From Parcubacteria bacterium C7867-007 (GTDB taxonomy: Bacteria > Patescibacteriota > Minisyncoccia > Phycocordibacterales > Phycocordibacteraceae), in assembly GCA_001189195.1 (NCBI GenBank), contig LFCQ01000006.1, positions 122,841-170,134 of the forward strand: 47,294 nucleotides of DNA, written 5' to 3'. The stretch's first letter is position 1. The number at the start of each line of letters is the position of its first letter. The position numbers and the translations under genes were made by a program. The notes beneath the pieces were generated by a model, which saw nothing but the letters and a program-made list of their open reading frames with translations, was not told the origin of the DNA and ran no database searches. Below are positions 27,309 through 47,275 of this stretch, piece by piece.

Positions 27309-27747
27309 GAATCTCATTCATCTGGTCGATTTCCTGTTGCTGGCTTTCAATAATGCCTTGGCAGAGCTGCTGAATTTCAGGATCAGTGATGTTCGCTTTC
27401 TCGCACATAAGAACAGCACCTGAGTGATGGGGAATCATAGACTGAAGGAAACCCTTATCTCCCACAAAAGTCTGATACCGAATCATCAGGAAGGACACCA
27501 CGAGAACAATTATTCCGATAAGAATCACAAGCTTGTTAAGTTTTTTGTCCTTGTACATCATGCCCATGAGCATCATCTCTAGAATGAGCATCGGCGCGGA
27601 CATCATAAAGCCCATGTACAGGAAATTGATATTCGGAACGGCGTTTGCAAACGTGTTTACCATGGCGAACATAAGGACGAACATGGCGACAACATGGAGT
27701 CCGGCCATGAGGGCTAGTAGCTGGTATGGTGAGTGTTTCATATTCAT
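27295..27747 (-). CDS. DUF305 domain (CopM-like) membrane protein
   Basis: Met-rich 3-TM N-terminus, FLQSMIPHHSGAVLMC, IIESQQQEIDQM; start may be 27741. Confidence 0.85.
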   Translation of the reverse strand: MNMKHSPYQLLALMAGLHVVAMFVLMFAMVNTFANAVPNINFLYMGFMMSAPMLILEMMLMGMMYKDKKLNKLVILIGIIVLVVSFLMIRYQTFVGDKGFLQSMIPHHSGAVLMCEKANITDPEIQQLCQGIIESQQQEIDQMNEILKRL

Positions 27748-27786
27748 AAGTATACCCCGGCCATTTTTATAGAGTACAATTTTCGT

Positions 27787-28122
27787 ATGCTCAGCATACT
27801 TTTCTTAAAGATAGGTCTCGGGGTAACTTTTGTGCTTACAGGCTTGCTAATATTAAGTAGTAAAGATCGGTGGGTACATATGTTGCCAGGGTGGTTCGCT
27901 AGTCGTTTGTCTTCTACGCGTGGTTTTATGATAGTGACTGCTATTGCCGACATTACTCTTGGGGTGTGGCTCTTAACTGGAATCTTTACAGCCATTGCGG
28001 CTATTCTAGCGGCCATACACCTTCTAGGTGTCCTTATAATTTCAGGCAAGCATGAATTCCATGAGGTCTATCGTGACATAGGGCTCTTATTTGCTGCTGT
28101 GGCCTTGGTATTTTCGGTGTAA
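27787..28122 (+). CDS. DoxX-like membrane protein
   Basis: LKIGLGVTFV, DITLGVWLLTG, YRDIGLL. Confidence 0.7.
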   Translation: MLSILFLKIGLGVTFVLTGLLILSSKDRWVHMLPGWFASRLSSTRGFMIVTAIADITLGVWLLTGIFTAIAAILAAIHLLGVLIISGKHEFHEVYRDIGLLFAAVALVFSV

Positions 28123-28154
28123 ATGACTAGAGGAGTCTAGCTACCAGAACCCTC

Positions 28155-28184
28155 TTGATTAGGTATACCCCTTAGGGGTATCAT
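28155..28184 (+). promoter_or_regulatory. csoR-copA promoter with CsoR-type operator
   Basis: TTGATT (-35), TATCAT (-10); palindrome ATACCCC-TTA-GGGGTAT at 28165-28181 matches the C-tract/G-tract CsoR/RcnR operator type. Confidence 0.8.
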
Positions 28185-28190
28185 AAACTT

Positions 28191-28457
28191 ATGAAGTTAG
28201 AAACTAAGAAGCCAATACAGAATCGTCTTCGCCGCATCGAAGGCCAGATCCGAGGCCTCCAAAAGATGGTTGAGGAAGATACGTACTGCATCGACGTCAT
28301 CACGCAGACCTCTGCCATCAAAAGCGCGCTTTCAAGCGTCGAAGATCTGTTGCTTGAGAACCATCTCGATACCTGCGCTTCTGACCAAATGAAATCTGGG
28401 AACGTCACTAAGGCAAAACAAGAGATTCTTGCGGTATATCGGCTTAAACGTAAATAA
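28191..28457 (+). CDS. csoR: Copper-sensing transcriptional repressor (CsoR/RcnR family)
   Basis: [29 protein letters not shown] (C-H-C Cu ligands). Confidence 0.92.
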
Positions 28458-28459
28458 AT

Positions 28460-30754
28460 ATGAACGACTCTCAGACCTACCGTATCAAAGGAATGCACTG
28501 CGCCTCTTGCGCAGGAATCATAGAGCGTACGGTTAAAAAGGTTGATGGCGTAGAACACATTGAAGTGAACTATGGTACTGAAACTGCGAAGATAGCTTTT
28601 GACTCAACGAAAACTGACCCCCATCAGCTTTCAGGCCACATCAAACCACTAGGGTATACGCTAGTCGTACCCACAGCTGAATCAATGGACATGTCTGCGG
28701 ACGAACACGCCTCACATACAGGTCTGAACCAATCGAAGACAGAAAAGCTAGCTGAACTTAAAGAGATGCGATGGAAGATTCTTTCAGTTATACCCCTGGC
28801 AGTTTTCAGCATATTCGTGATGGGTTGGGAAATTCTCGCGCAATTTGGCGTGACAGGAGCTATCCCTGAAATCCTGTACGAGTTCTTCCATCACCTGCTC
28901 CCGATCTTTGCTACATATGTGCTTATAGTAGTCGGACAGCCGTACCTCCTTGGCTTCTACCGCTTCCTTCGCTATGGCAAGGCGAATATGGATACTCTGA
29001 TCGGTATCGGTACCTCCGTTGCCTTCGTGTACAGTTTTATACTTACTGCTTTTGAAGAGCCATTAAGAGCTTTCCTGAACGTCGACCAAACGTATTACGA
29101 TGTAACCATCGTCGTTATCGTGTTCATCGCGCTCGGCAAATATTTAGAAGCTCAGTCAAAACTTAGAACCGGAGACGCAATTGAAAAGCTGCTTGGTCTT
29201 CAAGCAAAGACCGCTCTGGTGATGAGAGACGGCAAGGAAGTCGAAGTGCCAATTGACCAAGTTACCCATGGGGACCTTATCGTCGTGAAGCCAGGCGGCA
29301 AGATTCCGGTTGATGGCGTAATTGTCGAAGGAAATTCGTACATCGACGAATCTATGGTTACGGGAGAACCCATGGCTGTTGAGAAGAAGACTGGAGACAA
29401 TGTGGTCGCTGGAACTCTTAATACGAAGGGCCACTTTGTATTCAAAGCGACTAAAGTCGGCTCTGAAACGCTCCTTGCAAGCATTATAAGAATGGTCGGC
29501 GAAGCTCAAGGCAGCAAGGCACCGATCCAAGGACTTGCCGATAAGATCTCTAGCGTCTTTGTGCCTGTAGTTCTTGTGTTCGCCGTACTTGTCTTTATTG
29601 CATGGCTCGTGCTCGGCATTCCAACACTCGGTCTCGCACAAGCACTTTCTCTCGGCCTCACGTCATTTGTCGGCATTCTTGTTATCGCATGCCCATGCGC
29701 GCTCGGGCTTGCCACACCTATTGCCGTTATTGTCGGTGTTGGAAAGGGAGCCCAGGAAGGCATCCTCATTAAGGACGCGGCAACGCTTCAAAAGCTCAGG
29801 AGCGTAAATACTATTGTCGTAGACAAGACGGGTACGATTACGAAAGGAAAGCCCGAAGTGATTGAGCTACAGACCTTTCAAGGAAAATCAGAGCAGGAAG
29901 TTATGCGTATCCTCGCATCGCTTGAGAGTAAATCAGAGCACCCGCTTGCAAGTGCGATACTCGCGTATGCTGAGGGAAATTCTATTCGTTCGTCCGCCTC
30001 AGAGCAATTCGAGATAATCGAGGGAAAGGGGCTCAAGGGGACGATAGGAAATACCGAATACTTTGCAGGTAACGCAAAGCTTATTAATGATCTCGATATT
30101 CCGTTCGATAGTGGGGTCTTAGCTTCCCATACCAGCGAGGGAAGAACACCTGTCTTTCTTGCTACGAGCAAAGAAGTGCTCGGGCTGGTATTTATTGCAG
30201 ACGCTATAAAGCCTGAAGCAATAGATGCCGTTAAGAGGCTTCATAAGATGGGTATTAAGACGGTCATGCTCACGGGTGATAATCGGCAAGCGGCAGAAGC
30301 GATTGCGAAGCAGGTTGGTATAGACGAGGTCGTGGCAGAAGTCTTGCCAGGAGAGAAGCTCGACAAGATTAAAGAACTCCAAGCAGAAGGCCGAATAGTC
30401 GCCATGGCTGGTGACGGCGTGAACGATGCCCCCGCACTTGCTCAAGCTGACGTAGGTATCGCTATGGGAACGGGTACCGATGTCGCTATCGAAACGGCTG
30501 GCATAACGCTTCTTGGTGGAGACATCGGCAAACTGGTGAAGGCTATTCGACTTTCACGATTCACCATGAACGGAATTAAGCAAAATTTGTTCTGGGCATT
30601 TGCTTACAACATCATCGGTATTCCAATTGCAGCAGGAATACTCTTCCCGTTCTTTGGATTGCTTTTGTCGCCGGTGATTGCGGGACTCGCCATGGCGCTC
30701 TCGAGCGTTTCGGTGGTGCTCAACTCGCTTCGCTTAAAAACTGTAAAACTGTAA
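28460..30754 (+). CDS. copA: Copper-exporting P1B-1 ATPase
   Basis: [39 protein letters not shown] and MALSS TM motifs. Confidence 0.95.
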
Positions 30755-30757
30755 CCC

Positions 30758-31774
30758 ATGGAAACCTATACTTTTCACGTCCAGGGAATGCACTGCAAGT
30801 CTTGCATCGCGCTTACAGAGGGCGAGCTTATGGATCTGCCCGAGGTTACCCACGCGGAGTCCTCGCTTAAAACCCACACGGTTGATGTTGTGGGAGAGTT
30901 TGGTGGACGTACTCAAGACGAGATCGTGGCGTATCTCACCGAACCGCTCAAGAGGCATGGCTATAGTCTCCATCTTGAGAAACAAGCGCATAAGGTCAAG
31001 TGGGCAGACTTTACCTATGCCATACCAGTAGCCGCAGTCTTCATTGCGCTGTTCATCGTTCTACAAAAGCTCGGCATCGTTAATCTGGCTGGTTCTGGGG
31101 AAATGACCTATGCAACCGCGTTTGTCATTGGACTCGTCGCTTCAGTATCGACCTGCATGGCAGTAGTTGGCGGGCTCGTACTCTCCATGTCAGCGAGCTA
31201 TGCAAAGGAAGGACAAGGAGTGCGACCGCAAATACTATTCCATGTTGGCCGTCTCGTATCCTTCTTCGTTCTCGGCGGTGTGATTGGCGCGCTTGGCTCA
31301 GCTTTCCAGCTCGGAGGTACTGGCACATTTGTCCTCAGCTTTATAGTAGCCGTGATCCTGCTCATACTCGGACTTAACCTGCTTGACGTGTTCCCATGGA
31401 CGAAGAAATTGCTACCAACCCTTCCAGCTTCGTTCAGTAAGCATGTTACTCGTTTCAAGGGAGTAAACAGTACGCTTACGCCTCTTCTTATAGGTGCGGC
31501 GACATTCATTCTCCCGTGCGGCTTTACCCAATCGATGCAGCTCTACAGTCTTACGACAGGCAGCTTCCTTCAAGGCGCGCTTACCATGACAGTCTTCGCT
31601 TTAGGAACGCTTCCGATCCTCGCGCTCCTCAGCTTCAGTTCGCTCAGTATCAAGAAGCTGCAGACGGGTGTGTTCTATAAGACGGCGGGGCTCGTCGTTA
31701 TATTCTTCGGACTTTTTAACCTCATGAATAGCTTGGTCGCCGTCGGCCTAATTCCGCCATTATTTAGCTTCTAA
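30758..31774 (+). CDS. HMA domain + DsbD_2/TauE-like membrane protein
   Basis: GMHCKSC; STCMAVVGG; LPCGFTQ; FALGTLP. Confidence 0.88.
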   Translation: METYTFHVQGMHCKSCIALTEGELMDLPEVTHAESSLKTHTVDVVGEFGGRTQDEIVAYLTEPLKRHGYSLHLEKQAHKVKWADFTYAIPVAAVFIALFIVLQKLGIVNLAGSGEMTYATAFVIGLVASVSTCMAVVGGLVLSMSASYAKEGQGVRPQILFHVGRLVSFFVLGGVIGALGSAFQLGGTGTFVLSFIVAVILLILGLNLLDVFPWTKKLLPTLPASFSKHVTRFKGVNSTLTPLLIGAATFILPCGFTQSMQLYSLTTGSFLQGALTMTVFALGTLPILALLSFSSLSIKKLQTGVFYKTAGLVVIFFGLFNLMNSLVAVGLIPPLFSF

Positions 31775-31788
31775 CGTATACTATTCTT

Positions 31789-32178
31789 ATGAAGAAATTA
31801 CCTATTGTCGCTTCAGTGCTCCTCGCTGCTCTAATCATTGGCGGGGCAATAGCCTTTGGTGGAAAGTCCACATCGTCTAATCAAATGGTTCAGAATGTCT
31901 CGATGGAGGGGGAGAAGCAAATAATCGAGATTGATGCGAAAGGGGGCTACTCGCCCAAGCTCACTACAGCGAAAGCCGGCGTACCAACCATTCTTCGTTT
32001 GAAGACGAATGGCACTTATGATTGCTCGTCTGCGGTGTCGGTGCCAGCCCTCGGATTCCAGAAGACATTAGAAGCGACTGGCGTCACTGATATCGAAGTG
32101 TCTTCTCAACTGGCGCAAGGAACCCTCGAGGGAGTCTGCGCGATGGGAATGTATAACTTCTCAGTGAAATTTCTCTAA
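31789..32178 (+). CDS. Cupredoxin-like (CupA-type) protein
   Basis: N-terminal TM, GGYSP, AKAGVP, YDCS, CAMGMY. Confidence 0.85.
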   Translation: MKKLPIVASVLLAALIIGGAIAFGGKSTSSNQMVQNVSMEGEKQIIEIDAKGGYSPKLTTAKAGVPTILRLKTNGTYDCSSAVSVPALGFQKTLEATGVTDIEVSSQLAQGTLEGVCAMGMYNFSVKFL

Positions 32179-32186
32179 CAAAAAGT

Positions 32187-32636
32187 ATGCGTTCTCAATC
32201 GATTACAACTCGAGAAAAAAAATCACGATTGCAAACTGTACTCAAGAAGTTTAGTGCAATCTTGATTGGAAGTTTTCTTACGCTTGGAATATTGCTTTGC
32301 TTTAGTTTCGTATCAGGTATCTCAAATCATTCCATAGCTGAAGTACCGGACCATTCCTGCACTTCTTCTGAAGGATCAAGCCCATGTGACTCAATCAGCG
32401 AACATATTTCATATTGGCAAACAATTTCAACGGCAGTTTTCACTGACAATTTTCTTCTACTTTTAGTTAGTGCCGCATTGTTATTTTTGTGGATTTCTCA
32501 TCGCACTAAATTTACACACAAGGGCTACGCCCTATTCCATCCGACTAAGCCGAGTATAAACCTTGGTCTGATACTCTCACGCAACCCCCTTCAAGAGGCA
32601 TTCGCATCGGGCACCATTCATAGTAAGGCTTTTTAA
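32187..32636 (+). CDS. Hypothetical 2-TM protein with Cys/His loop
   Basis: TM - HSC(x8)C..ISEHISYWQ - TM - LQEAFASGTIHSKAF; AT-rich. Confidence 0.6.
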   Translation: MRSQSITTREKKSRLQTVLKKFSAILIGSFLTLGILLCFSFVSGISNHSIAEVPDHSCTSSEGSSPCDSISEHISYWQTISTAVFTDNFLLLLVSAALLFLWISHRTKFTHKGYALFHPTKPSINLGLILSRNPLQEAFASGTIHSKAF

Positions 32637-32676
32637 TTACACCGAGTCGTATTGATTAGCGTTAATTTAACTACTT

Positions 32677-33078
32677 ATGGACATAAAGACGAATACTAAA
32701 ATAGTAATTTCAGCAGTCGTGGGTATTATTCTGGGTGCTGGAGGTGTGATGGCCTTTTCTCAAAAGAATGAGATTGCCATGCCATCAATTTCTGGTGACG
32801 CAGTGGTTGGTCATAACACACAACAAGATCCTATGATGTCTTCACTAGCAGGAAAGAAAGGAGAGAGCTTTGATCGTGAGTTTATTATTCAGATGATTGC
32901 GCATCATCAAGGAGCAATTCAGATGGCAGAAATGGCACTTGAAACCTCAAAACGACCTGAAATTAAAGAACTTTCAACGGAAATTATCGCTGCTCAGAAG
33001 ATGGAAATTCAGAAAATGCAGGAATGGCATCTGGCGTGGTTTGGTTCGTCAGTACCAGTAACCCCTACGGGGCAATAA
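32677..33078 (+). CDS. DUF305 domain (CopM-like) protein
   Basis: FDREFIIQMIAHHQGAIQMA, IIAAQKMEIQKM. Confidence 0.88.
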   Translation: MDIKTNTKIVISAVVGIILGAGGVMAFSQKNEIAMPSISGDAVVGHNTQQDPMMSSLAGKKGESFDREFIIQMIAHHQGAIQMAEMALETSKRPEIKELSTEIIAAQKMEIQKMQEWHLAWFGSSVPVTPTGQ

Positions 33079-33095
33079 TTGTAGTTAACAAATGT

Positions 33096-33848
33096 ATGGA
33101 AACAGATAATAAAATAGAAGTCGCATCTGCGCTGAGTAAGTACTCAACACCAATCTCAGTGTTAGTGGGTGCAATTATTATTGCAGCTGCGCTTACTTTC
33201 GGTGATGGAAAACTTCCTCAGCAGGACGTAGCAGCGAATCCAGGCCAGGCCCAGCCAGACGCTGCGGCACTTCAAAAGCAATTAGAAAATATTGCACCTA
33301 TCACTGCTGAAGACCATATTCGAGGGAATCCAGATGCACCTGTAAAAATTGTTGAGTACTCAGATACGGAATGCCCATTCTGCAAGAGATTTCACCCTAC
33401 GATGCAACAAGTAATGAGTGAATATGGTGCAGACGGCAAAGTTGCGTGGGTGTATCGGCATTTCCCTCTTGACCAGCTTCATAAGAAGGCTAGGAAAGAA
33501 GCCATTGCGCTTGAGTGTGCTGGAGATCAAGGTGGCGATGATGCTTTCTGGAAATATACAGATCGACTCTACGAAGTGACACCCTCAAACGACGGCCTTG
33601 ATCCATCGGAACTTCCAAAGATCGCTAGTGAGGTCGGACTTAATGTCACCACCTTCAACACATGTCTTGCAAGTGGAAAGTTCGATGCACATGTTGAAGC
33701 AGACGCACAAAATGCTATTGCAACCGGCGGAAGCGGAACCCCGTGGAGTATAGTTATCGGCAAGAATGGCAAGAAGTACCCACTTTCGGGTGCCCAGCCG
33801 TATGAATCAGTAAAGCAGATAATTGACCTCGCTTCACAAGGCAAATAA
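33096..33848 (+). CDS. DsbA family thioredoxin-fold oxidoreductase
   Basis: GNPDAPVKIVEYSDTECPFCKRFH, YRHFPL, GTP, GAQP. Confidence 0.92.
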   Translation: METDNKIEVASALSKYSTPISVLVGAIIIAAALTFGDGKLPQQDVAANPGQAQPDAAALQKQLENIAPITAEDHIRGNPDAPVKIVEYSDTECPFCKRFHPTMQQVMSEYGADGKVAWVYRHFPLDQLHKKARKEAIALECAGDQGGDDAFWKYTDRLYEVTPSNDGLDPSELPKIASEVGLNVTTFNTCLASGKFDAHVEADAQNAIATGGSGTPWSIVIGKNGKKYPLSGAQPYESVKQIIDLASQGK

Positions 33849-33850
33849 AG

Positions 33851-34393
33851 ATGCTGTTCCAAGCGTTGCAAAAGGTATTGCGGAGGCCGACATACATGCT
33901 ACTTGCTCTGACGGTAAGTCTGGCGGTCTTTGCACTCGCTGTGTTACTGCCAAACGCTAGTTTAATTGGTATCATCGTCAGCTCGCCTAACATATTGCTC
34001 TCCCAAAAGCTTGGAATACCATTTAGTTTGTTAGGTTCTATTATTACTAACTTCACTATCCTTTCTGCGATCTCGACAATTGCTATCGCAACTCTGTTCG
34101 GAATAAATGTTGCCATGGTGCTTTATTTCCTGAGGCGGAAAATTAGCGAAGTAAAGAAGATCGGAATTACTACTGGGTTCTTGGGTGTTACCAGTGGGAT
34201 TATCGGCATTGGATGTGCCGCTTGCGGATCACTCCTGCTTACAAGTATTCTCTCGCTGTTCGGTGCATCAAGCATACTCGCATTCCTGCCCCTCGCAGGC
34301 GGTGAATTCGGTATCCTTGGCGTCATCTTACTCGTGATATCTGCTCACAGTATAGCCAACCAAATCCAGCATCCTGCAATCTGTAAAATTTAA
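33851..34393 (+). CDS. 4-TM membrane protein with CxxC
   Basis: GIGCAACGS motif and C-terminal Cys; 2 nt after dsbA. Confidence 0.7.
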   Translation: MLFQALQKVLRRPTYMLLALTVSLAVFALAVLLPNASLIGIIVSSPNILLSQKLGIPFSLLGSIITNFTILSAISTIAIATLFGINVAMVLYFLRRKISEVKKIGITTGFLGVTSGIIGIGCAACGSLLLTSILSLFGASSILAFLPLAGGEFGILGVILLVISAHSIANQIQHPAICKI

Positions 34394-34402
34394 CTCAACT
34401 AT

Positions 34403-34942
34403 ATGGAAAATAGTCAGCCTAATGAATATGTAAGTAGCAAAGAACGGAGAGAACGTAAACAGCAAGCAAAACTGGAAGCAAAAAATTCAGTGCTTCAAAA
34501 GCGGCGCGCAGCAAAAGTTATCCGATGGATCGGTTGGAGTTTGGTTGGCGCGGCGATTATTGGAAGTTTAGTTTGGTTCGTACTATCCCAGCCTAAGACC
34601 TCTGATTCTGAAATCATCTCTCGCACTGGTATTCACTGGCATCCGGAGCTAGAGATCTATGTCAAAGGCGCGAAGGTGGAATTTCCCGCCAATATAGGCA
34701 TTGGAGTAGCACATCAGCCTGTCCATACTCACGAAGATGCTGTAGAAGGAGTTGTACATCTTGAATTCGAAGGACTAGTTCGTAAAAGCGACACTACGCT
34801 AGGACAGTTCTTTAAGAGCTGGGGCAAAGATATTCGCTCACTTGGAGCGAATGTAACGATGACTGTCAATGGTCAGGAAAATATCGATCTTGAGAATTAT
34901 CAAATGCAGGACAAGGATGAAATTGTGTTGAGGTATGAGTAA
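34403..34942 (+). CDS. Membrane-anchored His-motif protein
   Basis: Basic N-terminus, TM, IHWHP, PANIGI, PVHTHE, VVHLE, TLGQFF. Confidence 0.7.
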   Translation: MENSQPNEYVSSKERRERKQQAKLEAKNSVLQKRRAAKVIRWIGWSLVGAAIIGSLVWFVLSQPKTSDSEIISRTGIHWHPELEIYVKGAKVEFPANIGIGVAHQPVHTHEDAVEGVVHLEFEGLVRKSDTTLGQFFKSWGKDIRSLGANVTMTVNGQENIDLENYQMQDKDEIVLRYE

Positions 34943-35001
34943 TACGGAACGACAATGCTCTCGTACTCCACTGAGTATCAAAACGCTAACAGCTTAAGAA
35001 T

Positions 35002-35778
35002 ATGAAACTGAAAAAGATAGCTTTGATTGGGCTCTTTGTTGTGCTGGTAGGAATTACAGGACTCATGCTTTTACAAAGCATGAAAAGTACTTTGGGAACG
35101 CAAACAGAGTCTCAGACTGAAGATGAGGTTGTTCTGGAAGTACCTGCACAGATAGCCGATCAAGAAGTCTTAATCAGTCGAGTTACGATGCCTAGTAACG
35201 GATGGGTTGTGGCACGGGGTATCGAAGATGGAAAACTCGGTCAGATTATAGAAATAAGCCCGTTTCTTGAAAAGGGTGAGTATAAAAAGGTAATTATTCC
35301 CCTCGGCGAATTCTATAATGGCGAAGAACTCATTGCCGTTATTTATGAGGATCAAAATGCTGACGGTATCTTCAATGGCCTCGATCTCCCCAAACTGGAT
35401 TCAAAAGGTCTTATGATAGCTCGCAGTGTAAAGACCGGAGAAGAAGTCGAAGGTCTTTCTGAGGCAGGTATGAGTGGGATGCTACATAATATGCCTGGAA
35501 TGGCAGACATGATCCAGATTCGATATACGAATACTGGCTTCGTTCCCAAGAATATTGAGGTGCCCGCAGGTTCTCTCGTTGAGTTCATTAATGAAAGTGA
35601 CCGGGAAATGTGGGTAGCATCCGATACTCATCCAACCCATGAACGACTCGCAACGTTCGACCAGTTTAGATCCTATCCTAAAGGCGGAGTGTATCGATAT
35701 CTTTTTGATAAGCCGGGAACCTGGCCGTATCACGATCACATCAGTCCAGCAGATGAGGGGATAATCACCGTACGCTAA
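35002..35778 (+). CDS. Membrane-anchored two-domain protein with C-terminal cupredoxin
   Basis: Met-rich linker, GFVPKNIEV, WVASDTHPTH, FDKPGTWPYHDH. Confidence 0.75.
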   Translation: MKLKKIALIGLFVVLVGITGLMLLQSMKSTLGTQTESQTEDEVVLEVPAQIADQEVLISRVTMPSNGWVVARGIEDGKLGQIIEISPFLEKGEYKKVIIPLGEFYNGEELIAVIYEDQNADGIFNGLDLPKLDSKGLMIARSVKTGEEVEGLSEAGMSGMLHNMPGMADMIQIRYTNTGFVPKNIEVPAGSLVEFINESDREMWVASDTHPTHERLATFDQFRSYPKGGVYRYLFDKPGTWPYHDHISPADEGIITVR

Positions 35779-35846
35779 TAAGCCACGATAATACTTGACT
35801 TTATTACTAAATATGATAAAGTACAATTCAATTAGGATTCTAAGTT

Positions 35847-36458
35847 ATGATTTCCGCACTGAAAACAGTAGGATTCTTTATCCTAACCGCCCTTATCTTC
35901 TTACTGTCATTTGCAGTGCTATTTGCATTTGATTTGGTTCCAGAGAGCAAATCCGAACTTACAGCGAGTGCTGAAAAAGTGGTGGACGTTCCAGCTGTAG
36001 TTGAAAGGGTTGAAGAACCTGCTCGTATCGTTGCTACAGACATTGGGTTAGACGCTTCTATCGTCAACCCGACAAGCAAAGATATAGCCGTGCTGGATAA
36101 AGCGCTCCTCTCAGGAGCGGTGCGCTACCCTGAAACGGCGCTTTTGGGAGAAGATGGGACAGCACTTTTGTTTGGGCACTCCAGCTATCTGCCTTTAGTA
36201 AAAAACAAGAACTATCAAATCTTTAACGATGTTCAAGAGCTTGAGAAAGGCAATATTGTGAGCGTGTACTCAGGCACGCGCGAGTATCGCTACGAGGTGG
36301 TGAGTGTTGAGCAAGCGAAAGCAACAGCTGATCGTATCAATCTCGAACAGAATGGTCGCTTTCTGAAGCTAGTTACATGTAACACCTTCGGTGCGAAAGA
36401 AGATCGGTTTGTCGTGACCGCCAAGTTCGTTGGAGTATATGAAACACAAAGCTCTTAA
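35847..36458 (+). CDS. Sortase
   Basis: N-terminal TM, FGHSS, LKLVTC, R (EDRFVV) catalytic triad. Confidence 0.88.
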   Translation: MISALKTVGFFILTALIFLLSFAVLFAFDLVPESKSELTASAEKVVDVPAVVERVEEPARIVATDIGLDASIVNPTSKDIAVLDKALLSGAVRYPETALLGEDGTALLFGHSSYLPLVKNKNYQIFNDVQELEKGNIVSVYSGTREYRYEVVSVEQAKATADRINLEQNGRFLKLVTCNTFGAKEDRFVVTAKFVGVYETQSS

Positions 36459-36584
36459 CTTTTAAGATATATCTGTGGCGTCGGCAGGTCGGTTTCAAGG
36501 CGGAATCAACTTTGCATATTGAGTTATTAGCTTCTAAAGCAAATAACTAACTCCAGGACGTGTGATACTTTTAGTACGTAATCT

Positions 36585-37457
36585 ATGAACAGACACTCCC
36601 ACGACAGTCAGGGAAACATAAAGATTGCGCTCTTTCTCAATATTGGTTTTACGATTATTGAGCTTATCGGAGGTCTACTTACGAACAGTCTCGCTATACT
36701 CTCGGACGCGCTTCATGACTTTGGAGACACTATTGTTCTCTCGCTCGCGTGGTATGCCGAGAAGAAATCAAAGCAGGGTCCAGACGAGAAGCGCACCTAC
36801 GGGTATGCCCGACTTTCCGTATTCTCCGCACTTGTTTCAGGTGCTGTCCTAATCGGTGGTTCTCTTTTCATCATCTCTCAAGCCATTCCGCGTCTCTTAA
36901 ACCTTGAAGCAGTGAATGCGCCAGGCATGATGGTACTTGCTGTCATTGGAATTATCTTTAACGGCATTGGCGCACTTCGTTTAAAGAAGGGAGAAGGTAT
37001 CAGCGAACGAGTGCTTTCATGGCATCTCTTTGAAGACGTGTTTGGATGGACGGCGATACTTATTGGTGGCGGGTTGATCTATCTCTTCGACCTGCCGATT
37101 CTGGACCCCGTACTCACGATTGGCTTCACGCTCTTTATCCTCTGGGGAGTTATCCGCTCAATGGGAGAAGTGAGCAACATTCTGCTTGAAGGCGTACCGC
37201 AGCAGGTACACCTGAAGGCGCTCAAGACCGACATACTCCAGTTTGAGGGTATACTCGGTCTCCACGATGTCCATGTTTGGTCTCTTGAAGGCAAGACCAA
37301 TGTATTGAGTGGGCATATCATCATAAAGCCGCAGAGCGTTGATGAGGGACGAGCCATACAACAGAACGTAAAAGCCATGCTCAAGGAGAAACACGATATT
37401 GAGCATGCAACGATAGAATTGGAGACCGATGGAAGTTGCGAAGAGAAGAATTGCTAA
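36585..37457 (+). CDS. czcD: Cation diffusion facilitator (Zn/Co/Cd efflux)
   Basis: NSLAILSDALHD, TYGYAR, WHLFED, LLEGVP, HDVHVWSL, HATIELE. Confidence 0.9.
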   Translation: MNRHSHDSQGNIKIALFLNIGFTIIELIGGLLTNSLAILSDALHDFGDTIVLSLAWYAEKKSKQGPDEKRTYGYARLSVFSALVSGAVLIGGSLFIISQAIPRLLNLEAVNAPGMMVLAVIGIIFNGIGALRLKKGEGISERVLSWHLFEDVFGWTAILIGGGLIYLFDLPILDPVLTIGFTLFILWGVIRSMGEVSNILLEGVPQQVHLKALKTDILQFEGILGLHDVHVWSLEGKTNVLSGHIIIKPQSVDEGRAIQQNVKAMLKEKHDIEHATIELETDGSCEEKNC

Positions 37458-37752: not shown

Positions 37753-38739
37753 GTGTCGCCACAGTCCGTGGACAGCGTCTTTCCTTTTCCACATACCGCA
37801 CATGCTCAAGGAGCAGAAGATGTAATCCTCCATGACCCTTCCATAGACCTTCTTGAGGCAGCTATAAACTCTGACCCAAACCCGGATAAGGGTGATCATG
37901 AAATGGAGGTCGCAGGAGGCATGGCGCTTCTTCCACACGGAGACCTTCCCGAAGGCGAAGCTGAAGTTTCAAGCTCGAAAGCTTCTAAACCTAAGAAGAC
38001 AGGTATTGCTATCTACACAGTGCAGGAAGGCGACTCGCTCTCTGAGATTGCTGAAGAATATGGCGTATCCACAAAGACCATTCTCTGGGCGAACGATATT
38101 CGTGATGCAAGCACCATTCGTATTGGGGATGATCTCATCATTCTTCCGGTCTCTGGGGTGCAGCATAAAGTTGCAAGCGGAGATACCCTTCAATCTATCG
38201 CCAAGAAGTATGGCTCTGACGTAAGCGATATTGCGCTCTACAACGGAATAAGCGAGTCCAAGGGGCTTATTGCAGGTTCTGAGATCATCGTACCTGGTGG
38301 TGCATTCCCCTCGGCTCCTTTAAAGAAAGTGGCGAACTCAGCTTCATCTAAGAAAAGCACTCCTGCGGCTAAGTATTCTAGTCCGTCTAGCTCATCAGGT
38401 AAGTTAGGAAACCCACTTCCAGGTGGAGTAATCACTCAGGTAAATCACGGATATAACGCTGTGGACATAGACGGAGAAACTGGAGACCCTATTTATGCTT
38501 CAGCAAGCGGCTCGGTCATCATTGCCAAGGGTGGAGGAGGATATAACGGTGGCTATGGAAATTATATCGTAATTGAGCATGGCGCAGGTGTTCAGACTCT
38601 CTACGCACATATGTCGAGTCTCGCTGTATCAGGCGGAACGGTTGATAAGGGTGAGGTTATCGGATATGTGGGGAACACGGGTAAATCAACGGGCTCGCAT
38701 CTGCATTTTGAAGTCCGCGGAGCAATTAATCCCCTATAA
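37753..38739 (+). CDS. LysM x2 + M23 peptidase (true start probably upstream)
   Basis: YTVQEGDSLSEIA, HKVASGDTLQSIA, HGYNAVD, TLYAHM, STGSHLHFEV. Confidence 0.9.
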   Translation: MSPQSVDSVFPFPHTAHAQGAEDVILHDPSIDLLEAAINSDPNPDKGDHEMEVAGGMALLPHGDLPEGEAEVSSSKASKPKKTGIAIYTVQEGDSLSEIAEEYGVSTKTILWANDIRDASTIRIGDDLIILPVSGVQHKVASGDTLQSIAKKYGSDVSDIALYNGISESKGLIAGSEIIVPGGAFPSAPLKKVANSASSKKSTPAAKYSSPSSSSGKLGNPLPGGVITQVNHGYNAVDIDGETGDPIYASASGSVIIAKGGGGYNGGYGNYIVIEHGAGVQTLYAHMSSLAVSGGTVDKGEVIGYVGNTGKSTGSHLHFEVRGAINPL

Positions 38740-38825
38740 TCTTGCTCTGTCGGTAAGCTCTTCGCAATTGCCAAAAGTCTGATAGGGTCTTGGGCGATAG
38801 CGCATATGGGGCTATCATGTTCCTG

Positions 38826-39030
38826 TTAGCCAAGACCTAACCCCTAGGATTCCAATCCTAGGATATGGTCGAAAATCCTAGTAGAGATCAAAGGACTCCC
38901 AGTCAGAGTCACTCTACTAGGTCATATCTGGAAACAGGTATGGGTCTGGCCGAAAGGTTGGATCGCGATGGCTGGGAGCCTTTTGATTATCTCTTGGGGC
39001 TCTCTGCTACTTAAAAACCTAGTAGAAAAT
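38826..39030 (+). ncRNA. Candidate structured RNA / 5' leader
   Basis: Multiple stems including an 18-bp helix, two GAAA-tetraloop hairpins and G-U pairs; family not recognised. Confidence 0.55.
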
Positions 39031-39038
39031 AATTACGT

Positions 39039-39518
39039 ATGGATACGCCAACAGCGTCCGCAAAGAAACCTCTTCTTAAGAAGTGGTGGGTCTGGGTACT
39101 TATCGTACTCGGCATCTTTATTATCATAGGTTCGATAGGCGGCTCTGATTCTTCAAGTTCAGGAAGCCAGAGCGCGAAGGAGGAAGTGAAGGTCGAGCCA
39201 GCTCTTACGGTCACGGCTTTCAAAATGGCTGCCGAGTACAAGGAAAACGAAGTCGCTGCAGACGCAAAGTACAAGGGCAAGCTCGTCGAAATATCAGGCA
39301 GCGTAGATACCATCGGCAAAGATGTTCTCGATACGCCGTTTATCGCCTTCTCAACTGAAAATCAGTACGAGATCATCAATCGAATTCAGTGTATGTTTGG
39401 AAAGAACGATGTGGAAGTGCTCTCAAGTGTCTCCAAGGGTCAGAAGATTACCCTTCGCGGTACTGTCTCCGGTGCTCTCGGAAACATCATTGTTAAAGAT
39501 TGCGAAATCATAGAGTAG
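39039..39518 (+). CDS. Membrane-anchored OB-fold protein (tRNA_anti-like)
   Basis: KKWWVW + TM, YKENEVAADAKYKGKLVEISGSV, KGQKITLRG, VKDC. Confidence 0.8.
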   Translation: MDTPTASAKKPLLKKWWVWVLIVLGIFIIIGSIGGSDSSSSGSQSAKEEVKVEPALTVTAFKMAAEYKENEVAADAKYKGKLVEISGSVDTIGKDVLDTPFIAFSTENQYEIINRIQCMFGKNDVEVLSSVSKGQKITLRGTVSGALGNIIVKDCEIIE

Positions 39519-41036
39519 CTAGAACCGGCTGTTAAATCCGAGTGGATACCACGGCCCTTCGCCATCGTCCCAGATGCTGTTTCTTCCGAGGTCGATAACA
39601 GTGATACGTGGTGTCGCTCTTCCATAGTGCTCAAGCCCATGATGGGCGAGAATCGTAAATGCATCGACTAGGTCGTCGTGCCGCTCTATGCCAAACCCTA
39701 CGAGCTGCCGGATCAGCTCCTCGCATCCATGCTTCGGGAACTTAATCTTTCCGTTCTGGATGAGCGCAGAAACCGTCATGAGTCGGGAACGTTTGTCGCC
39801 TGATACTTTTACTCCCTTGGCCCCGTATACGTCATGGGCGAGCTGGTCGAGGACCGCTTTCTGGTATCCGACCTCCTCAACCAAAATCTCGACTCGGTTG
39901 TATATCTTTTTGTTGGCGTGATACACCGCTTTGATCTGGTCGATAGTCTGCGGAAACGTAAGACGCTTGTTGATAGGGTTTGGTAGAACGTACAGACAAA
40001 ACTTATCTTCGTGCCCGCTTATGATGCCGGAGACCATCGCCGTGTAATCAGCGGTCTCTTTCTGCGAGATGGCGAGGTCGATACCTACTCCTATATCGAT
40101 AAAGTTTCGTGTTGATTCGGGAATCCCATCGTAGTAGTGAATCCAGTCAGGGTGTATGACCTGATCTTCGTCTGGGACGATATTCAGGAGGTACTCTCGC
40201 TGCCAAGCATACGGATTGCCGCTTTTCTTCCGCTCTACTTCTATATCGGCCATGGTCGGGTATTTCCCCGGCCAAGCGATCTTTTGTGATTCCGAGAGTA
40301 ATGGAAACATCTTGAATACACCTTCACGCTGACCTTCATCAATATCCTTCTTGAGATGCATCACGAGTGAATCCTCATGGAGTAGGTTTCCGATAACGAT
40401 AAGGCGCGTATTCAGTCCGCCGCCTGGTATCACTTCGCCTGTGAGCCAGTGATAGGTTTTCTGCCTTGATTCATAGGTCCGAACGGATTGCAGGTCTTCG
40501 ATGTCGTCGCAGATGATGAGATCCGGGCGATGCTGATTGTGCCGAAGTCCGCGAATACTCTGTTCCATGGACGCGACCGTAATACGTGCGCCAGTATTCG
40601 AGAATACCAAGGACGACGAACCCCATTCGTCGCTTTCTTCTTCAAAGGGCCCCAAGTCACTCTTGAGTAAAGAGTTGCTCTCAAGCTCACGCTTCAAGTT
40701 CATCATGTGCTGCTTGGCCTGAGTACGGGTTTGGAAGAACATTAGTACGAACTTCTTTTGCTGGATACCAAGAATTGACCACAGCGAGTACGAGAACGTG
40801 ACGAGCGTAGATTTACCCGAACCACGGAACGCGACGATGACGGCAAGTTTGTTCTCGCTGTCCTCGGTTATGCGGAAGATGTCTTTCTGGAACTCCGCTA
40901 TCGGGTACTGGACGTAGTGCGAGAAGTACACGTAGAAAAACATGAGGTGCGATTGCCGCGTGACGTGCTGGCGCACCGCGCGGTTCTTCGTGAGTTCCTC
41001 GAATGCATCGTCATCAAGAGGGCTGTTCTGGCTCAT
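39519..41036 (-). CDS. Phage terminase large subunit-like protein
   Basis: Walker A AFRGSGKST, IRGLR, Walker B IICDDIED, IGN coupling motif, QREY, RNase H-like GIDLAIS...DYTA, VEEVGYQ, DKRSR, HDDLVDA. Confidence 0.9.
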   Translation of the reverse strand: MSQNSPLDDDAFEELTKNRAVRQHVTRQSHLMFFYVYFSHYVQYPIAEFQKDIFRITEDSENKLAVIVAFRGSGKSTLVTFSYSLWSILGIQQKKFVLMFFQTRTQAKQHMMNLKRELESNSLLKSDLGPFEEESDEWGSSSLVFSNTGARITVASMEQSIRGLRHNQHRPDLIICDDIEDLQSVRTYESRQKTYHWLTGEVIPGGGLNTRLIVIGNLLHEDSLVMHLKKDIDEGQREGVFKMFPLLSESQKIAWPGKYPTMADIEVERKKSGNPYAWQREYLLNIVPDEDQVIHPDWIHYYDGIPESTRNFIDIGVGIDLAISQKETADYTAMVSGIISGHEDKFCLYVLPNPINKRLTFPQTIDQIKAVYHANKKIYNRVEILVEEVGYQKAVLDQLAHDVYGAKGVKVSGDKRSRLMTVSALIQNGKIKFPKHGCEELIRQLVGFGIERHDDLVDAFTILAHHGLEHYGRATPRITVIDLGRNSIWDDGEGPWYPLGFNSRF

Positions 41037-41421
41037 GAGGCTTAAGCGTTAAGTTCGCAAGCGACAACGCCTTATGGACGAGTTCTTTCTGCTCGTCCGA
41101 AAGTTCCTGAATTGTGTTCACGGTCCCTTCGATCTGCACTTTGGTGCGATACGAAGGATGGTTGTGTTTCAGCCATCCCATAACTGCGGTCATATTCCGG
41201 TCTTTGATAGCACCGATGAGCTGACCTTCTGCTAGATCGTTCACCATGAGTCTGCCTTCGAGCAGAGCGTCGTCCACGCTCTTTGCGAAGTCCGCATTCT
41301 CCGCTCGCCATCGGTATAAGGTCACACGGCTGATGCCGACCTTCTCGCATCCGACCTGAAGGATTGGTGTCTTGCGGAGTTGTTCAAGAAGCGCGGCTTT
41401 TGAGGCGTCCGACTTTTTCAT
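41014..41421 (-). CDS. Terminase small subunit-like HTH protein
   Basis: LLEQLRKTPILQVGCEKVGISRVTLYRWRAENADF HTH; AVMGWLK; overlaps the TerL start. Confidence 0.72.
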   Translation of the reverse strand: MKKSDASKAALLEQLRKTPILQVGCEKVGISRVTLYRWRAENADFAKSVDDALLEGRLMVNDLAEGQLIGAIKDRNMTAVMGWLKHNHPSYRTKVQIEGTVNTIQELSDEQKELVHKALSLANLTLKPHEPEQPS

Positions 41422-42689
41422 ACCTTCACAGCCTTCTGGCCAGTTAGCCTCTCATAGCGGCGAATGATGAGATCTACGAAGATTGGCTCGCGCTCAATCA
41501 GGTATGCAGACCGCTTCAACTGCTCGCACGCAATCAAAAGACTGCCTGAACCACCAAAGCAGTCGAGGATGATGTCAGAGGGCTTGGTACAGCGCCTCAG
41601 CGCCCTCTCATGGAGCACAGGCGGCTTCTCGGTCGGGTGTTGATATCCAGTCCCATTCAGCCGCTTTACGAGCCAGATATCGAGGAGGTCATAGATGTCT
41701 TCAAGAGTCTGATTTCCCGTGCCGATCTCCTTGTTCAGGATTTCGGAGAGATTCAGCACCTTGTCCGAGAGGTACGGCTTGCCGATTGTGCCGTACACGC
41801 ACGGCTCGTACTGCTTGTTGAACGCGCTATGCGGCGTAGGTGAGGAGTTATTCTTAATCCAGAGGCACACCCGCTTGTTCGCGATGCCGGATTCCTGATA
41901 CAGGCTCTGCAAGAGCCAGATGTACCGCTGGTCGCAGTAGGTGAAAACGTGCGCGTCTTTCTTGGTAACAGCAATCGCGTTCTTGAGACAGGAAGCGAGA
42001 AATGCTTTGTATGCCTTGTCGGTGAGGGAATCATCGACAGTGCCGCCATACGACTTCTTGCCGCCTACGCCTTTGTCGTACGAAAGCCCGATGTTGTATG
42101 GCGGGTCGGTCAGGATGGTGTCGGCTTTCTTTCCGGCCATGAGTCGTGCAAACGTATCAGGGTCGGTACTGTCCCCGCAGATGAGACGGTGCGAGCCGAG
42201 CTGGTATAAATCGCCGGTCTTTGCTTTTGGTTTCTTAATCTTTGCTAACTCCTTCTCGACATCAAACTCATCATGCTCGACCTCAAGATCGTCGAAGAGA
42301 TGCGACAGATCGGTATCATCGAAGCCGCTCGCAAGCAGGGTCTCGACATCGAACTCGTCCACGAGTTTTTGCCAGTCCCAGTCTCCGTGGATACGGTTAG
42401 AACCGAGGAGGTACTGGTCGTACTCTTTCTTCGTGAGCTTGCGGTTCGGCACACGGACCGAAATAGTCTCTTTCTCGCGTCCGAGGAGTTTCAAAACCAT
42501 GAGCCGCTGGTGCCCAGCGATCACGGTGTTGTTCTTGTCGATCACAGGAAGTTCTACGAGATCGAACTTCCTGAGACTCTTCTTCAAGTCTTCGATCTGT
42601 TTTGCGCTCATAGTGCGCGGGTTTCTGATATTAGGCACAAGGTCGGCGATCTTGCGGTTCTGGGTAGTCCAGGAGAGTTTTGCTGGCAT
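41418..42689 (-). CDS. ParB-like domain + N6/N4 DNA methyltransferase (beta order)
   Basis: NPRTM...IAGHQR (ParB-like), HRLICGDST, TDPPYN, HPTEKP, LDCFGGSGS. Confidence 0.92.
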   Translation of the reverse strand: MPAKLSWTTQNRKIADLVPNIRNPRTMSAKQIEDLKKSLRKFDLVELPVIDKNNTVIAGHQRLMVLKLLGREKETISVRVPNRKLTKKEYDQYLLGSNRIHGDWDWQKLVDEFDVETLLASGFDDTDLSHLFDDLEVEHDEFDVEKELAKIKKPKAKTGDLYQLGSHRLICGDSTDPDTFARLMAGKKADTILTDPPYNIGLSYDKGVGGKKSYGGTVDDSLTDKAYKAFLASCLKNAIAVTKKDAHVFTYCDQRYIWLLQSLYQESGIANKRVCLWIKNNSSPTPHSAFNKQYEPCVYGTIGKPYLSDKVLNLSEILNKEIGTGNQTLEDIYDLLDIWLVKRLNGTGYQHPTEKPPVLHERALRRCTKPSDIILDCFGGSGSLLIACEQLKRSAYLIEREPIFVDLIIRRYERLTGQKAVKV

Positions 42690-42849
42690 ATGAGTAAAAT
42701 GATGAATAAGCAGATTGCTCTGTACATCCAGCAAACCAACAATTTCATTTGCTCGACACGCCCGTTATCGTGAACGGAAAGAGAAATACCGCTCGTAATT
42801 GAGCCGTATTTCAAATCTTATCCACCGTCACGATGGCGTCCGGATGGCC

Positions 42850-45991: not shown

Positions 45992-47275
45992 TTATTTCTT
46001 GTGGCGGCGGAGGAAGCTTGGAATGGCACCCCAGGCGTCATCCTCATCCTCTATAACAGGAGGAGTGATAGGTTGTGCTGTGTCGCGTACCTTTGGCATT
46101 GCAGTAACTATAGGTTCTTCACGTTCACGGCGAGGAGGAAGGATAGGACCTTCGTCACTAACAGGTTCAGGCATCGGGGTTGGAAGGGGCACTACTGGTT
46201 CCTCACGGCGACCAAGTACGTCATTGAAAATCTTTCCACGACTCTCCTCCTGTTCCTTTGCAGGCATGGTGAAGAGAGAACGTTCGAAACCTCCGCTAAA
46301 TGCGCTTCCGCCATCCTGTTCTGGGAATCCTGTAGCGATAACAATGATGCGGATCTGGCCCTTCTTGAGTTTCTCATCGCGCATGATACCGAAGATAACC
46401 TTTGCTGTTTTATCAACGGACTCACCGATAACCTTAGCTGCTTCCTGCACCTCAAGGATACCCAGATCCTCAGAGCCTGCGACCACGAAGAGGATACCCT
46501 TAGCACCCGTGATAGAGACGTCGAGAAGTGGGGAATTAACCGCAGCTGCTGCAGCATCCTTTGCTCGGTTGTCGCCATCGGCAATACCAATACCCATGAG
46601 TGCTGGACCTGCACCCTCCATAATTGCTTTGATGTCGTTAAAGTCTGTATTGATTTCACCGGGAGTGGTGATGATATCTGAAACACCTTCCACTGCCTGA
46701 CGAAGGATTTCATCACAGAGTGCAAATGCATTCTTAGCAGATGTCTGTGCTTCTACAATTGAAAGAAGTTTGTCGTTTGGAATGATGAGATACGCATCCA
46801 CCTCCTTCTTAAGAAGTGCGAGACCATGTTCAGCGATTTCAGTGCGCTGCTGACCCTCGAAGGTGAAGGGCTTTGTTACAACAGCAACAGTGAGAGCACC
46901 GAGCTCCTTTGCAATCTTTGCAACAACACCCGCTGCACCGGTTCCGGTACCTCCACCCATACCGCAGGTGATGAAGACCATGTCTGAACCCTGGAGTGCT
47001 TCCTGGATTTCCTGACGAGTCTCATCTGCCGCACGGCGACCGAGTTCAGGATTCATGCCTGCACCCAGACCACGGGTCAGATTCTTGCCAATATGGATCT
47101 TTCGCTTTGCGAGGCTACGGTGTAGATCCTGGGCATCAGTGTTGATAGCGATGAATTCTACGCCCTTAACCTTGGAGTTGATCATGTGATTCACAGCATT
47201 GTTGCCAGAACCACCAACACCCACCACACGAATGCGGGCGAAGGTTTCTATTTCAGGAGTAACGCGCTTGGACAT
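45992..47275 (-). CDS. ftsZ: Cell division protein FtsZ
   Basis: [33 protein letters not shown]-terminal IPSFLRR. Confidence 0.97.

Follow-up and report, generated by a model that had tools for sequence, protein, structure and literature searches.

During our analysis of a 47,294-nucleotide (nt) stretch of DNA from Parcubacteria bacterium C7867-007 (contig LFCQ01000006.1, positions 122,841 to 170,134; hereafter the window) we found that the intergenic region upstream of a gene for an OB-fold (oligonucleotide/oligosaccharide-binding fold) protein carries a full-length member of the LOOT RNA family (Rfam RF03000), and comparison with about 125 LOOT relatives suggests that this RNA is probably a bistable, cis-acting 5' leader of the OB-fold gene. 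LOOT has so far been an orphan motif, filed as a metagenomic small RNA (sRNA) without an assigned function. The relatives share a covarying 3' strand that lies outside the Rfam model and a repeat of one strand of helix P2 close to the start codon, and in view of these two features we lean toward a two-state leader acting in cis, rather than a free-standing sRNA, as the most likely account of the family. We read LOOT, on this comparative sequence evidence, as a riboswitch-like leader that is widespread in Patescibacteria.

Results

The element is a member of the LOOT family

The initial annotation of this locus, made without database searches, had described a highly structured RNA and recognised no Rfam family in it. 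When we scanned positions 38300-39500 of the window against Rfam 15 with cmscan, RF03000 was matched on the + strand over its full length (model positions 1-121 of 121) with 77.5 bits (E = 1.3e-14), well over the gathering score of 46.4 bits. The family being known, the locus does not hold a new RNA; what it carries is an ordinary LOOT RNA. The other Rfam matches in the scanned region were at chance level only (c-di-GMP-I-GGC at 13 bits and sR3 at 11.9 bits). A search of the whole genome with RF03000 (702,407 bases in 8 contigs, 99% complete) gave the same result and found this to be its sole LOOT copy. P1, the outer part of P2, P3 and P4 all align with the RF03000 consensus, with the GAAA loops of P3 and P4 at 38931-38934 and 38952-38955. 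The inner P2 stem was flagged as non-canonical by cmscan, yet the segment contains a local 5-base-pair (bp) hairpin (GACUC/GAGUC, 38894-38910).

The sequence features that had been described at the locus are all present as given, among them a TATCAT hexamer resembling a -10 box, the hairpin CCUAGGAU/AUCCUAGG (38843-38850 with 38855-38862) within P1, and the two GAAA-capped hairpins P3 and P4, with several G-U pairs. From the G-U pairs a function at the RNA level and on the plus strand had been proposed, and the predicted fold of 38826-39045 bears this out: the + strand reached -82.3 kcal/mol (z = -5.27), with 0 of 200 shuffles as stable, versus z = -2.36 for the - strand, for which 3 of 200 shuffles were as good. 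This confirmed that the structured RNA is real and strand-specific.

A further helix had been suggested to close the whole structure, between CCAAGA (38830-38835) and UCUUGG (38992-38997). While the two segments are indeed complementary, the pairing is not conserved: in a leader-to-tail duplex test over 60 loci the mean was -7.51 within a locus versus -7.61 across loci, with no covariation, and we rejected this helix along with any other leader-to-tail pairing.

In the literature LOOT appears in structure-prediction and database contexts. According to the passages that mention it, the family comes from the Weinberg/Breaker alignment collection, entered Rfam with release 14, and is called a metagenome-based RNA in a figure legend of the corresponding paper (PMC7779021); a table in the Rfam 15 paper lists it as gaining 2 covarying pairs (PMC11701678); and the CaCoFold paper singles it out as an extreme case with 28 cross-covariations (PMC7657543). 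None of these passages assigns LOOT a function. The main text of the discovery paper (PMC5737381) does not contain the name, the lone text match being an author named Loot in its reference list.

A conserved long-range helix outside the Rfam model

The Rfam model stops at P4, and the 18-position helix proposed in the initial annotation lies outside it. At the locus the helix joins AUCAAAGGACUCCCAGUC, which we call A, to GGCUGGGAGCCUUUUGAU, which we call A', through 17 pairs (two of them G-U) and one A-C mismatch (coordinates of this and the other features are in Table 1). We compared it in two sets of relatives (individual loci are given L numbers). The first set started from 72 LOOT hits in related genomes, which after removal of 5 near-duplicates left 67 loci; alignment A1 contains 64 of these sequences, the two hits that scored under the Rfam cut-off (L055b, L070) and one with an aberrant 3' part (L059) having been excluded. 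The second, alignment A2, comprises 62 other non-redundant loci drawn from 80 retrieved with an exact pattern derived from P3 (of at least 119 matching stretches), after a chance match (L145), a truncated locus (L134) and 16 near-duplicates had been left out. The P3 pattern does not overlap A, A' or the segments x and x2 described below, and both alignments were built by MAFFT without structural information.

Alignment A1 supported A:A' over 22 column pairs with 87.6% of cells paired, and 20 of the 22 pairs showed compensatory changes on both sides. There were 235 compensatory cells compared with 73 ± 7.8 in shuffled alignments, and none of 500 shuffles reached the observed count; since the relatives share ancestry such shuffle counts overstate independence, which the slid-partner controls and the second set lessen and do not remove. 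The covariation of A:A' on A1 was 0.521, far above the 0.09-0.13 obtained with the 3' partner slid by 1-3 columns, and alignment A2 gave much the same picture (19 pairs, 90.0% of cells paired, covariation 0.512 versus 0.07-0.19 when slid). For comparison, the accepted Rfam helices on A1 had 82.1% of cells paired and a covariation of 0.532. An alignment-free measure agreed, the duplex between A and the tail averaging -34.9 kcal/mol within a locus, -23.7 kcal/mol across loci and -21.2 kcal/mol with shuffled tails, and in 22 of the 67 loci a locus's own tail outscored all 66 others. Judged by these comparisons A:A' is a conserved, covarying helix of the LOOT family, and it matches the accepted helices in covariation; the long helix was thus correctly picked out from the single sequence.

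Competition between A:A' and P2

The segments that flank A at the locus, x (CCUAGUAGAG) and x' (CUCUACUAGG), are complementary to each other, and the initial annotation had taken their pairing for an alternative that crosses the long helix. The competition stands; the x:x' duplex, for its part, turned out to be the accepted outer P2 stem of the Rfam consensus, and all 10 of its column pairs show compensatory changes on A1. The local hairpin of inner P2 has three alignable pairs (87.3% of cells paired on A1), which share their CCC columns with A:A', and both partners of these columns covary: in the 20 A1 sequences with a C-to-U change, the matching G-to-A change is found in A' in 20 of 20 and in the local partner in 12. 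Both of the competing pairings are therefore conserved by compensatory change.

The linkers at the locus are short: A follows x directly (0 nt) and is separated from x' by 7 nt. When each pairing was enforced in turn, the fold with P2 closed (fold I) came to -81.8 kcal/mol and the fold with A:A' (fold II) to -82.3 kcal/mol, i.e., the two are isoenergetic at this locus, within 0.5 kcal/mol. Across 36 loci the means were -71.7 kcal/mol for fold I and -74.6 kcal/mol for fold II, with 16 loci favouring fold I and 20 favouring fold II; this comparison covers 36 of 60 loci, the remaining 24 having been dropped because too few constraint pairs could be mapped from the alignment.

A second copy of the P2 strand beside the start codon

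Besides pairing with x, x' is complementary to CCUAGUAGA, a second copy of the 5' strand of P2 that we call x2 and that ends 12 nt before the ATG at 39039. This repeat, which had been noticed from the window alone, recurs in the family, is specific to each locus, and, in roughly every second locus, lies beside the start codon. In the first set 34 of 67 loci have an own-locus copy of x (at least 9 nt) downstream, versus 233 of 4422 cross-locus controls; in the second the counts were 24 of 62 versus 74 of 3782, and 21 of the 24 copies are followed by an ATG within 1-12 nt. The x':x2 duplex averaged -12.3 kcal/mol within a locus versus -6.8 kcal/mol across loci, ended 1-11 nt before the AUG, and lay beyond the controls' 5th percentile in 31 of 60 loci. 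At the C7867-007 locus x:x' and x':x2 have duplex energies of -14.8 and -13.7 kcal/mol, respectively, and the loop lengths of a structure combining A:A' with x':x2 are compatible with an H-type pseudoknot.

The position of LOOT relative to open reading frames (ORFs) is likewise restricted. Counting same-strand ATG-ORFs of at least 35 codons, 60 of 67 loci have a start 41-89 nt past the end of the Rfam match (median 60, quartiles 54-64), compared with 7 of 67 on the divergent side, which served as control. Shine-Dalgarno (SD)-like cores are rare both in the window (3 of 42 ORFs) and in front of LOOT-linked ORFs (4 of 62), counts that rest on crude start calls (longest ORF), and none was found upstream of the OB-fold ORF. 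Because the genes mostly lack SD sequences, a block to initiation could plausibly work by occluding positions -1 to -15.

Further elements of the tail

Downstream of A' lies a segment, A2, that can pair locally with A' (38969-38982). Over 126 loci the A':A2 duplex averaged -14.0 kcal/mol within a locus, -10.9 kcal/mol across loci and -9.2 kcal/mol with shuffled partners, and it reached -12 kcal/mol in 84 of the 126 versus 20.6% of shuffles. In 97 of 126 loci at least 5 of the 8 nt behind the GC-rich core of A' are T, and this U tract also pairs, with covariation, to a conserved A-rich stretch of A. Our scan for intrinsic (Rho-independent) terminators, which looked for compact hairpins with 3-8 nt loops, made no + strand call at 38970-38995. 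A separate hairpin followed by a U run does occur between A' and the start in six non-redundant loci that form one sequence class (L014, L093, L106, L124, L135 and L141). Its 5' arm is A2, which otherwise pairs with A', and that subclass therefore has a 1:2 / 2:3 / 3:4 chain of pairings.

P1, P3, P4 and upstream signals

The helices of P1 have 94% and 82% of cells paired on A1. The internal loop of P1 reads CCUAAC (38836-38841) / UAUGG (38864-38868) at the locus, and over 126 loci the two commonest versions, CCUAAA/CAUGG (56 loci) and CCUAAC/UAUGG (38 loci), account for 94. This loop resembles the 11-nt receptor of GAAA tetraloops, which is written CCUAAG_UAUGG in the relevant passage of PMC11381326, and a GAAA loop that is invariant or nearly so in the 64 and 62 sequences of the two alignments sits elsewhere in LOOT, on P3. 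The two motifs differ at the sixth position, which is A or C in LOOT rather than G (G in 1 of 126 loci); a further version found in 4 loci, UCUAAA_CAUGA, is one of the receptor variants reported as tested in the same passage (PMC11381326). Our hypothesis is that a tetraloop contact from P3 to P1 would reach across the base of P2, favouring fold I. P4 is missing entirely from L071, which retains A:A' and x2, so that P4 is dispensable for the switch architecture.

Upstream of P1 a TAHHWT hexamer peaks at 25-34 nt over 124 loci, and at the locus TATCAT starts 21 nt upstream. This hexamer is the probable -10 box of a promoter for the leader. A simple sigma-70 scan found no full -35/-10 promoter at the locus, only the -10-like box being conserved. 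In 68 of the 124 loci the interval from the -10-like box to P1 holds a motif resembling ACAAYUGAAUA, 13-19 nt upstream of P1; the motif has diverged in the window (about 38819-38833) and no covarying partner for it was found in the tail. A transcription start region and a binding site are candidate roles for it.

Table 1. Features of the LOOT locus in window coordinates
Feature	Position	Strand	Remarks
LOOT-bearing intergenic region	between 37753-38739 and 39039-39518		flanked by the M23/LysM peptidase gene (+) and the OB-fold gene (+)
TATCAT hexamer	38813-38818	+	probable -10 box of the leader promoter
LOOT core (P1, P2, P3, P4)	38834-38964	+	Rfam RF03000 model
P1	38834-38870	+	outer stem GACC/GGUC and hairpin 38843-38862
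x	38877-38886	+	5' strand of outer P2 stem, CCUAGUAGAG; Rfam consensus helix
A	38887-38904	+	apical part of P2 and 5' strand of long-range helix; overlaps GACUC 38894-38898 / GAGUC 38906-38910
x'	38912-38921	+	3' strand of outer P2 stem, CUCUACUAGG; pairs with x or x2
P3	38922-38943	+	hairpin with GAAA loop; 92.2% of cells paired (A1)
P4	38944-38963	+	G-U-rich hairpin with GAAA loop; length varies among homologues
A'	38970-38987	+	3' strand of long-range helix, GC-rich core then UUUU; outside Rfam model
A2	38996-39009	+	can pair locally with A'; from tail fold and constrained fold I
x2	39018-39026	+	second copy of P2 5' strand, CCUAGUAGA
Downstream ORF	39039-39518	+	159 amino acids, membrane-anchored tRNA_anti-like OB-fold (PF12869, E = 1.3e-22)

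Discussion

A two-state model and its alternatives

We propose that LOOT alternates between the two folds compared above. In fold I, which is the Rfam fold, x:x' would close P2 with the small local hairpin as its cap, A' would be held by A2, and the A/U-rich stretch before the AUG, x2 included, would be left single-stranded, so that the gene would be expressed (the ON state). In fold II, A' would invade the apex of P2 to form the 17-22 bp A:A' helix, which would exclude closed P2, and the freed x' would pair with x2 just before the start codon and block initiation (the OFF state). In most relatives, which have a U tract behind the GC-rich A', A:A' could also terminate transcription, and in the one subclass with a further hairpin its formation would free A2 and let the separate canonical terminator form. 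The receptor-like loop of P1 and the GAAA loop of P3 flank P2, and their docking would clamp fold I; we infer that this tertiary contact is the site of input, for which a ligand, Mg2+, temperature and a protein are candidates. Only tentatively would we extend the model to a whole class, in which LOOT might be the sensor of a new riboswitch-like family specific to Patescibacteria (the candidate phyla radiation, or CPR). The Rfam fold would there be the ON state, clamped by a P3-P1 contact that senses a global signal (ion, nucleotide messenger or temperature), and A:A' the OFF state, acting via terminators or via occlusion of SD-less starts, with floating accessory genes (envelope, defence-like or nuclease) under control at up to four loci per genome.

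Several observations weigh against a cis-acting switch. Copies of x2 are lacking in 33 of 67 and 38 of 62 loci of the two sets, and in L028 and L031b (the latter one of two copies on its contig) no ORF follows and the element ends in a terminator, a canonical one in L031b, as a stand-alone sRNA would; Rfam itself types RF03000 as Gene; sRNA. At the locus A and A' are separated by 65 nt, with x', P3 and P4 between them, and a loop of about 65 nt is atypical for a terminator. The local A':A2 hairpin has moderate support, as 40.5% of cross-locus pairs also reach -12 kcal/mol. Closed P2 together with a complete A:A' helix looks sterically impossible because linkers of 0 nt and 7 nt would be left to bridge 17-22 bp of helix, a geometric argument and not a computation. 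Finally, a pathway shared among the regulated genes, which is expected of riboswitches, was not found, and the downstream genes are so diverse that no common substrate or ligand can be inferred from them.

The initial annotation had offered both a translational switch and a stand-alone non-coding RNA, and it is the cis-acting switch that the comparative data favour. Were LOOT a stand-alone sRNA, A:A' and its U tract would be the RNA's own terminator or closing helix, and the product, about 160 nt long, would expose x' in a three-way junction and repress the neighbouring mRNA, and possibly others, through x2. Its Rfam type, the T-rich stretch (at least 5 of 8) behind the GC-rich core of A' in 97 of 126 loci, the two loci with no downstream ORF, and the four loci in which A' and its U tract alone were called as a small terminator hairpin (L101, L131, L142 and L146) all fit such an RNA, and the complementarity of x' and x2 would be equally useful in trans. 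A trans-acting RNA would, however, have no need of the tight ORF spacing (60 of 67 versus 7 of 67 on the control side), and x2 fits only the LOOT of its own locus, which implies a single target about 30 nt downstream on the same strand, i.e., regulation effectively in cis; moreover, one mature fold does not explain why a competing P2 pairing of nearly equal energy is conserved. We therefore regard the sRNA account as rather unlikely. Less probable still, in our view, is a single native fold in which P2 coexists with part of A:A' as a pseudoknot, or in which A pairs with the A' of a second molecule (a dimer), the RNA having a structural, catalytic or protein-binding role and its link to genes being incidental or related to stability. 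This would account for the conservation of both pairings, from the tetraloop and the receptor-like motif one would expect a compact tertiary structure, and the 28 cross-covariations given for LOOT in the CaCoFold passage (PMC7657543) could reflect more complex pairing. The same linker geometry that separates folds I and II speaks against it, and it leaves unexplained both the x2 copies at start codons and the separate terminators built from A2.

That the repeats act at the level of DNA, e.g., as recombination or packaging sites of the adjoining phage-like genes, we strongly disfavour. A terminase large subunit, a small helix-turn-helix (HTH) protein and a ParB-like methylase are indeed encoded directly downstream on the other strand, and LOOT occurs on three contigs in IMG/VR. 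Set against this, G-U pairs serve the + strand only (z = -5.27 versus -2.36), the compensatory changes preserve pairing in RNA, and 52 of 151 related genomes contain LOOT, which precedes many mutually unrelated genes. LOOT is not specific to the adjoining phage-like genes, and nothing links the RNA to them. The cis-acting, two-state leader thus remains the reading we prefer.

Distribution of LOOT

RF03000 was detected in 52 of 151 related genomes (G000 included), or about a third, in 50 of them above the cut-off, and in none of 14 control genomes. Within the window's genus 34 of 90 genomes have LOOT, with up to 4 copies per genome. The exact 23-letter pattern derived from P3 occurred in at least 119 stretches of a collection of species-representative genomes, and 1 of the 80 loci retrieved was the chance match noted above. 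Among the matches listed, almost all record titles belong to Patescibacteria: labels include Paceibacterota, Parcubacteria, Nomura-, Adler-, Zambryski-, Taylor-, Komeili-, Magasanik- and Doudnabacteria, as well as Levyibacteriota and many metagenome-assembled genomes labelled Saccharibacteria, and the matches in the few bins with other labels lie mostly on short contigs. Loci of the window's relatives reappear among the pattern-scan records under the titles Paceibacteria, Paceibacterota and Nomurabacteria. In IMG/VR the pattern was found on 3 contigs only, all of them true LOOT.

The L031 contig carries a divergently oriented pair of LOOT copies, one on each strand, with about 560 nt between them. 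Four public runs (three studies) yielded contigs that match the window with high identity at 38867-38989 only, i.e., over the x-A-x'-P3-P4-A' core, and then run on into different P1 and tail sequences; given their other flanks they come from related LOOT copies, and they are probably DNA. A near-identical core is also found before different genes in L029, L038, L052, L129, L143 and L148. Such sharing could reflect strong constraint or the exchange of modules.

Downstream genes and neighbourhood

The OB-fold gene is the presumed regulated gene at this locus. In its syntenic homologue in L053 an ACG stands at the site of the window's ATG, about 74 nt past the end of LOOT, with the frame otherwise kept; the true start may differ there, or a non-canonical start codon may be used. 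Pfam searches with 70 downstream ORFs found a family in 22, these being mutually unrelated, and none in 48. The families were tRNA_anti-like (2), Imm_superinfect (3), TM2+SHOCT, the Cap15 receptor domain, N6_N4 DNA methylase (2), SNase, FemAB and DUF4352, with weak matches to DUF805, DUF559, VRR-NUC, a NucS-like domain and zinc ribbons. The ORF downstream of LOOT in L026 has a Cap15 cyclic-dinucleotide receptor domain (E = 3.6e-22), the type of effector found in CBASS (cyclic oligonucleotide-based antiphage signalling system) defence, and other LOOT leaders precede methylases, nucleases and superinfection-immunity proteins. An excess of membrane proteins among the linked genes was unsupported, as a hydrophobic segment in the first 80 amino acids was found in 37 of 62 LOOT-linked ORFs versus 22 of 42 window ORFs.

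Upstream in the window, 26676-37457 is a run of metal-handling genes encoding a CsoR-type repressor, a P-type ATPase with HMA, a DsbD_2/HMA protein, cupredoxin-like and DUF305 proteins, a DsbA-like thioredoxin, a sortase and a cation-diffusion facilitator; judging from this gene content, the 0.7-Mb genome seems to hold a copper/metal resistance island there. Downstream, 39519-42734 (- strand) encodes a terminase large subunit (Terminase_6C), a 135-amino-acid HTH protein and a 438-amino-acid N6_N4 DNA methylase. No structural phage genes were visible from there up to FtsZ at 45992-47275, and the segment could represent what is left of a prophage, or else a small packaging-related island.

Implications and comparison with known systems

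How these ultrasmall and for the most part uncultivated bacteria regulate their genes is very poorly understood, and in the relevant passage of a perspective (PMC11665869) riboswitches are named only as possible engineering tools. If the two-state reading is right, LOOT would move from the sRNAs to the cis-regulatory leaders, with a two-state scheme that can be tested experimentally, and there would be room to lengthen the Rfam model by about 25-60 nt. A widespread natural RNA switch would also offer a first handle on regulation in these hosts and possibly a part for inducible expression.

Compared with RF03000 as filed, the core is without differences, having a P1 that bears CCUAA...AUGG, a long P2, and P3 and P4 capped by GAAA and GNRA, respectively. 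What our analysis adds is A', A2, x2, the upstream -10 box and a fixed distance to the ORF, and these hold family-wide.

Like riboswitches and other cis-acting leaders, LOOT has a conserved structured domain situated in the 5' leader and in the orientation of the gene, and apparently mutually exclusive helices of nearly equal energy that, depending on the locus, would occlude the start site or build a terminator. It differs from riboswitches in that nothing suggests a ligand and the controlled genes are mutually unrelated, and in the placement of the switching strand, which lies inside the apical part of a hairpin of the sensor domain rather than in the domain's closing stem. In trp-type attenuators the classical arrangement is a 1:2 / 2:3 / 3:4 chain of alternative pairings. 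The LOOT subclass in which A, A' and A2 are followed by a fourth segment and a U run has such a chain; unlike those attenuators, it shows no leader peptide, and its segment 1 sits inside a large conserved structured RNA.

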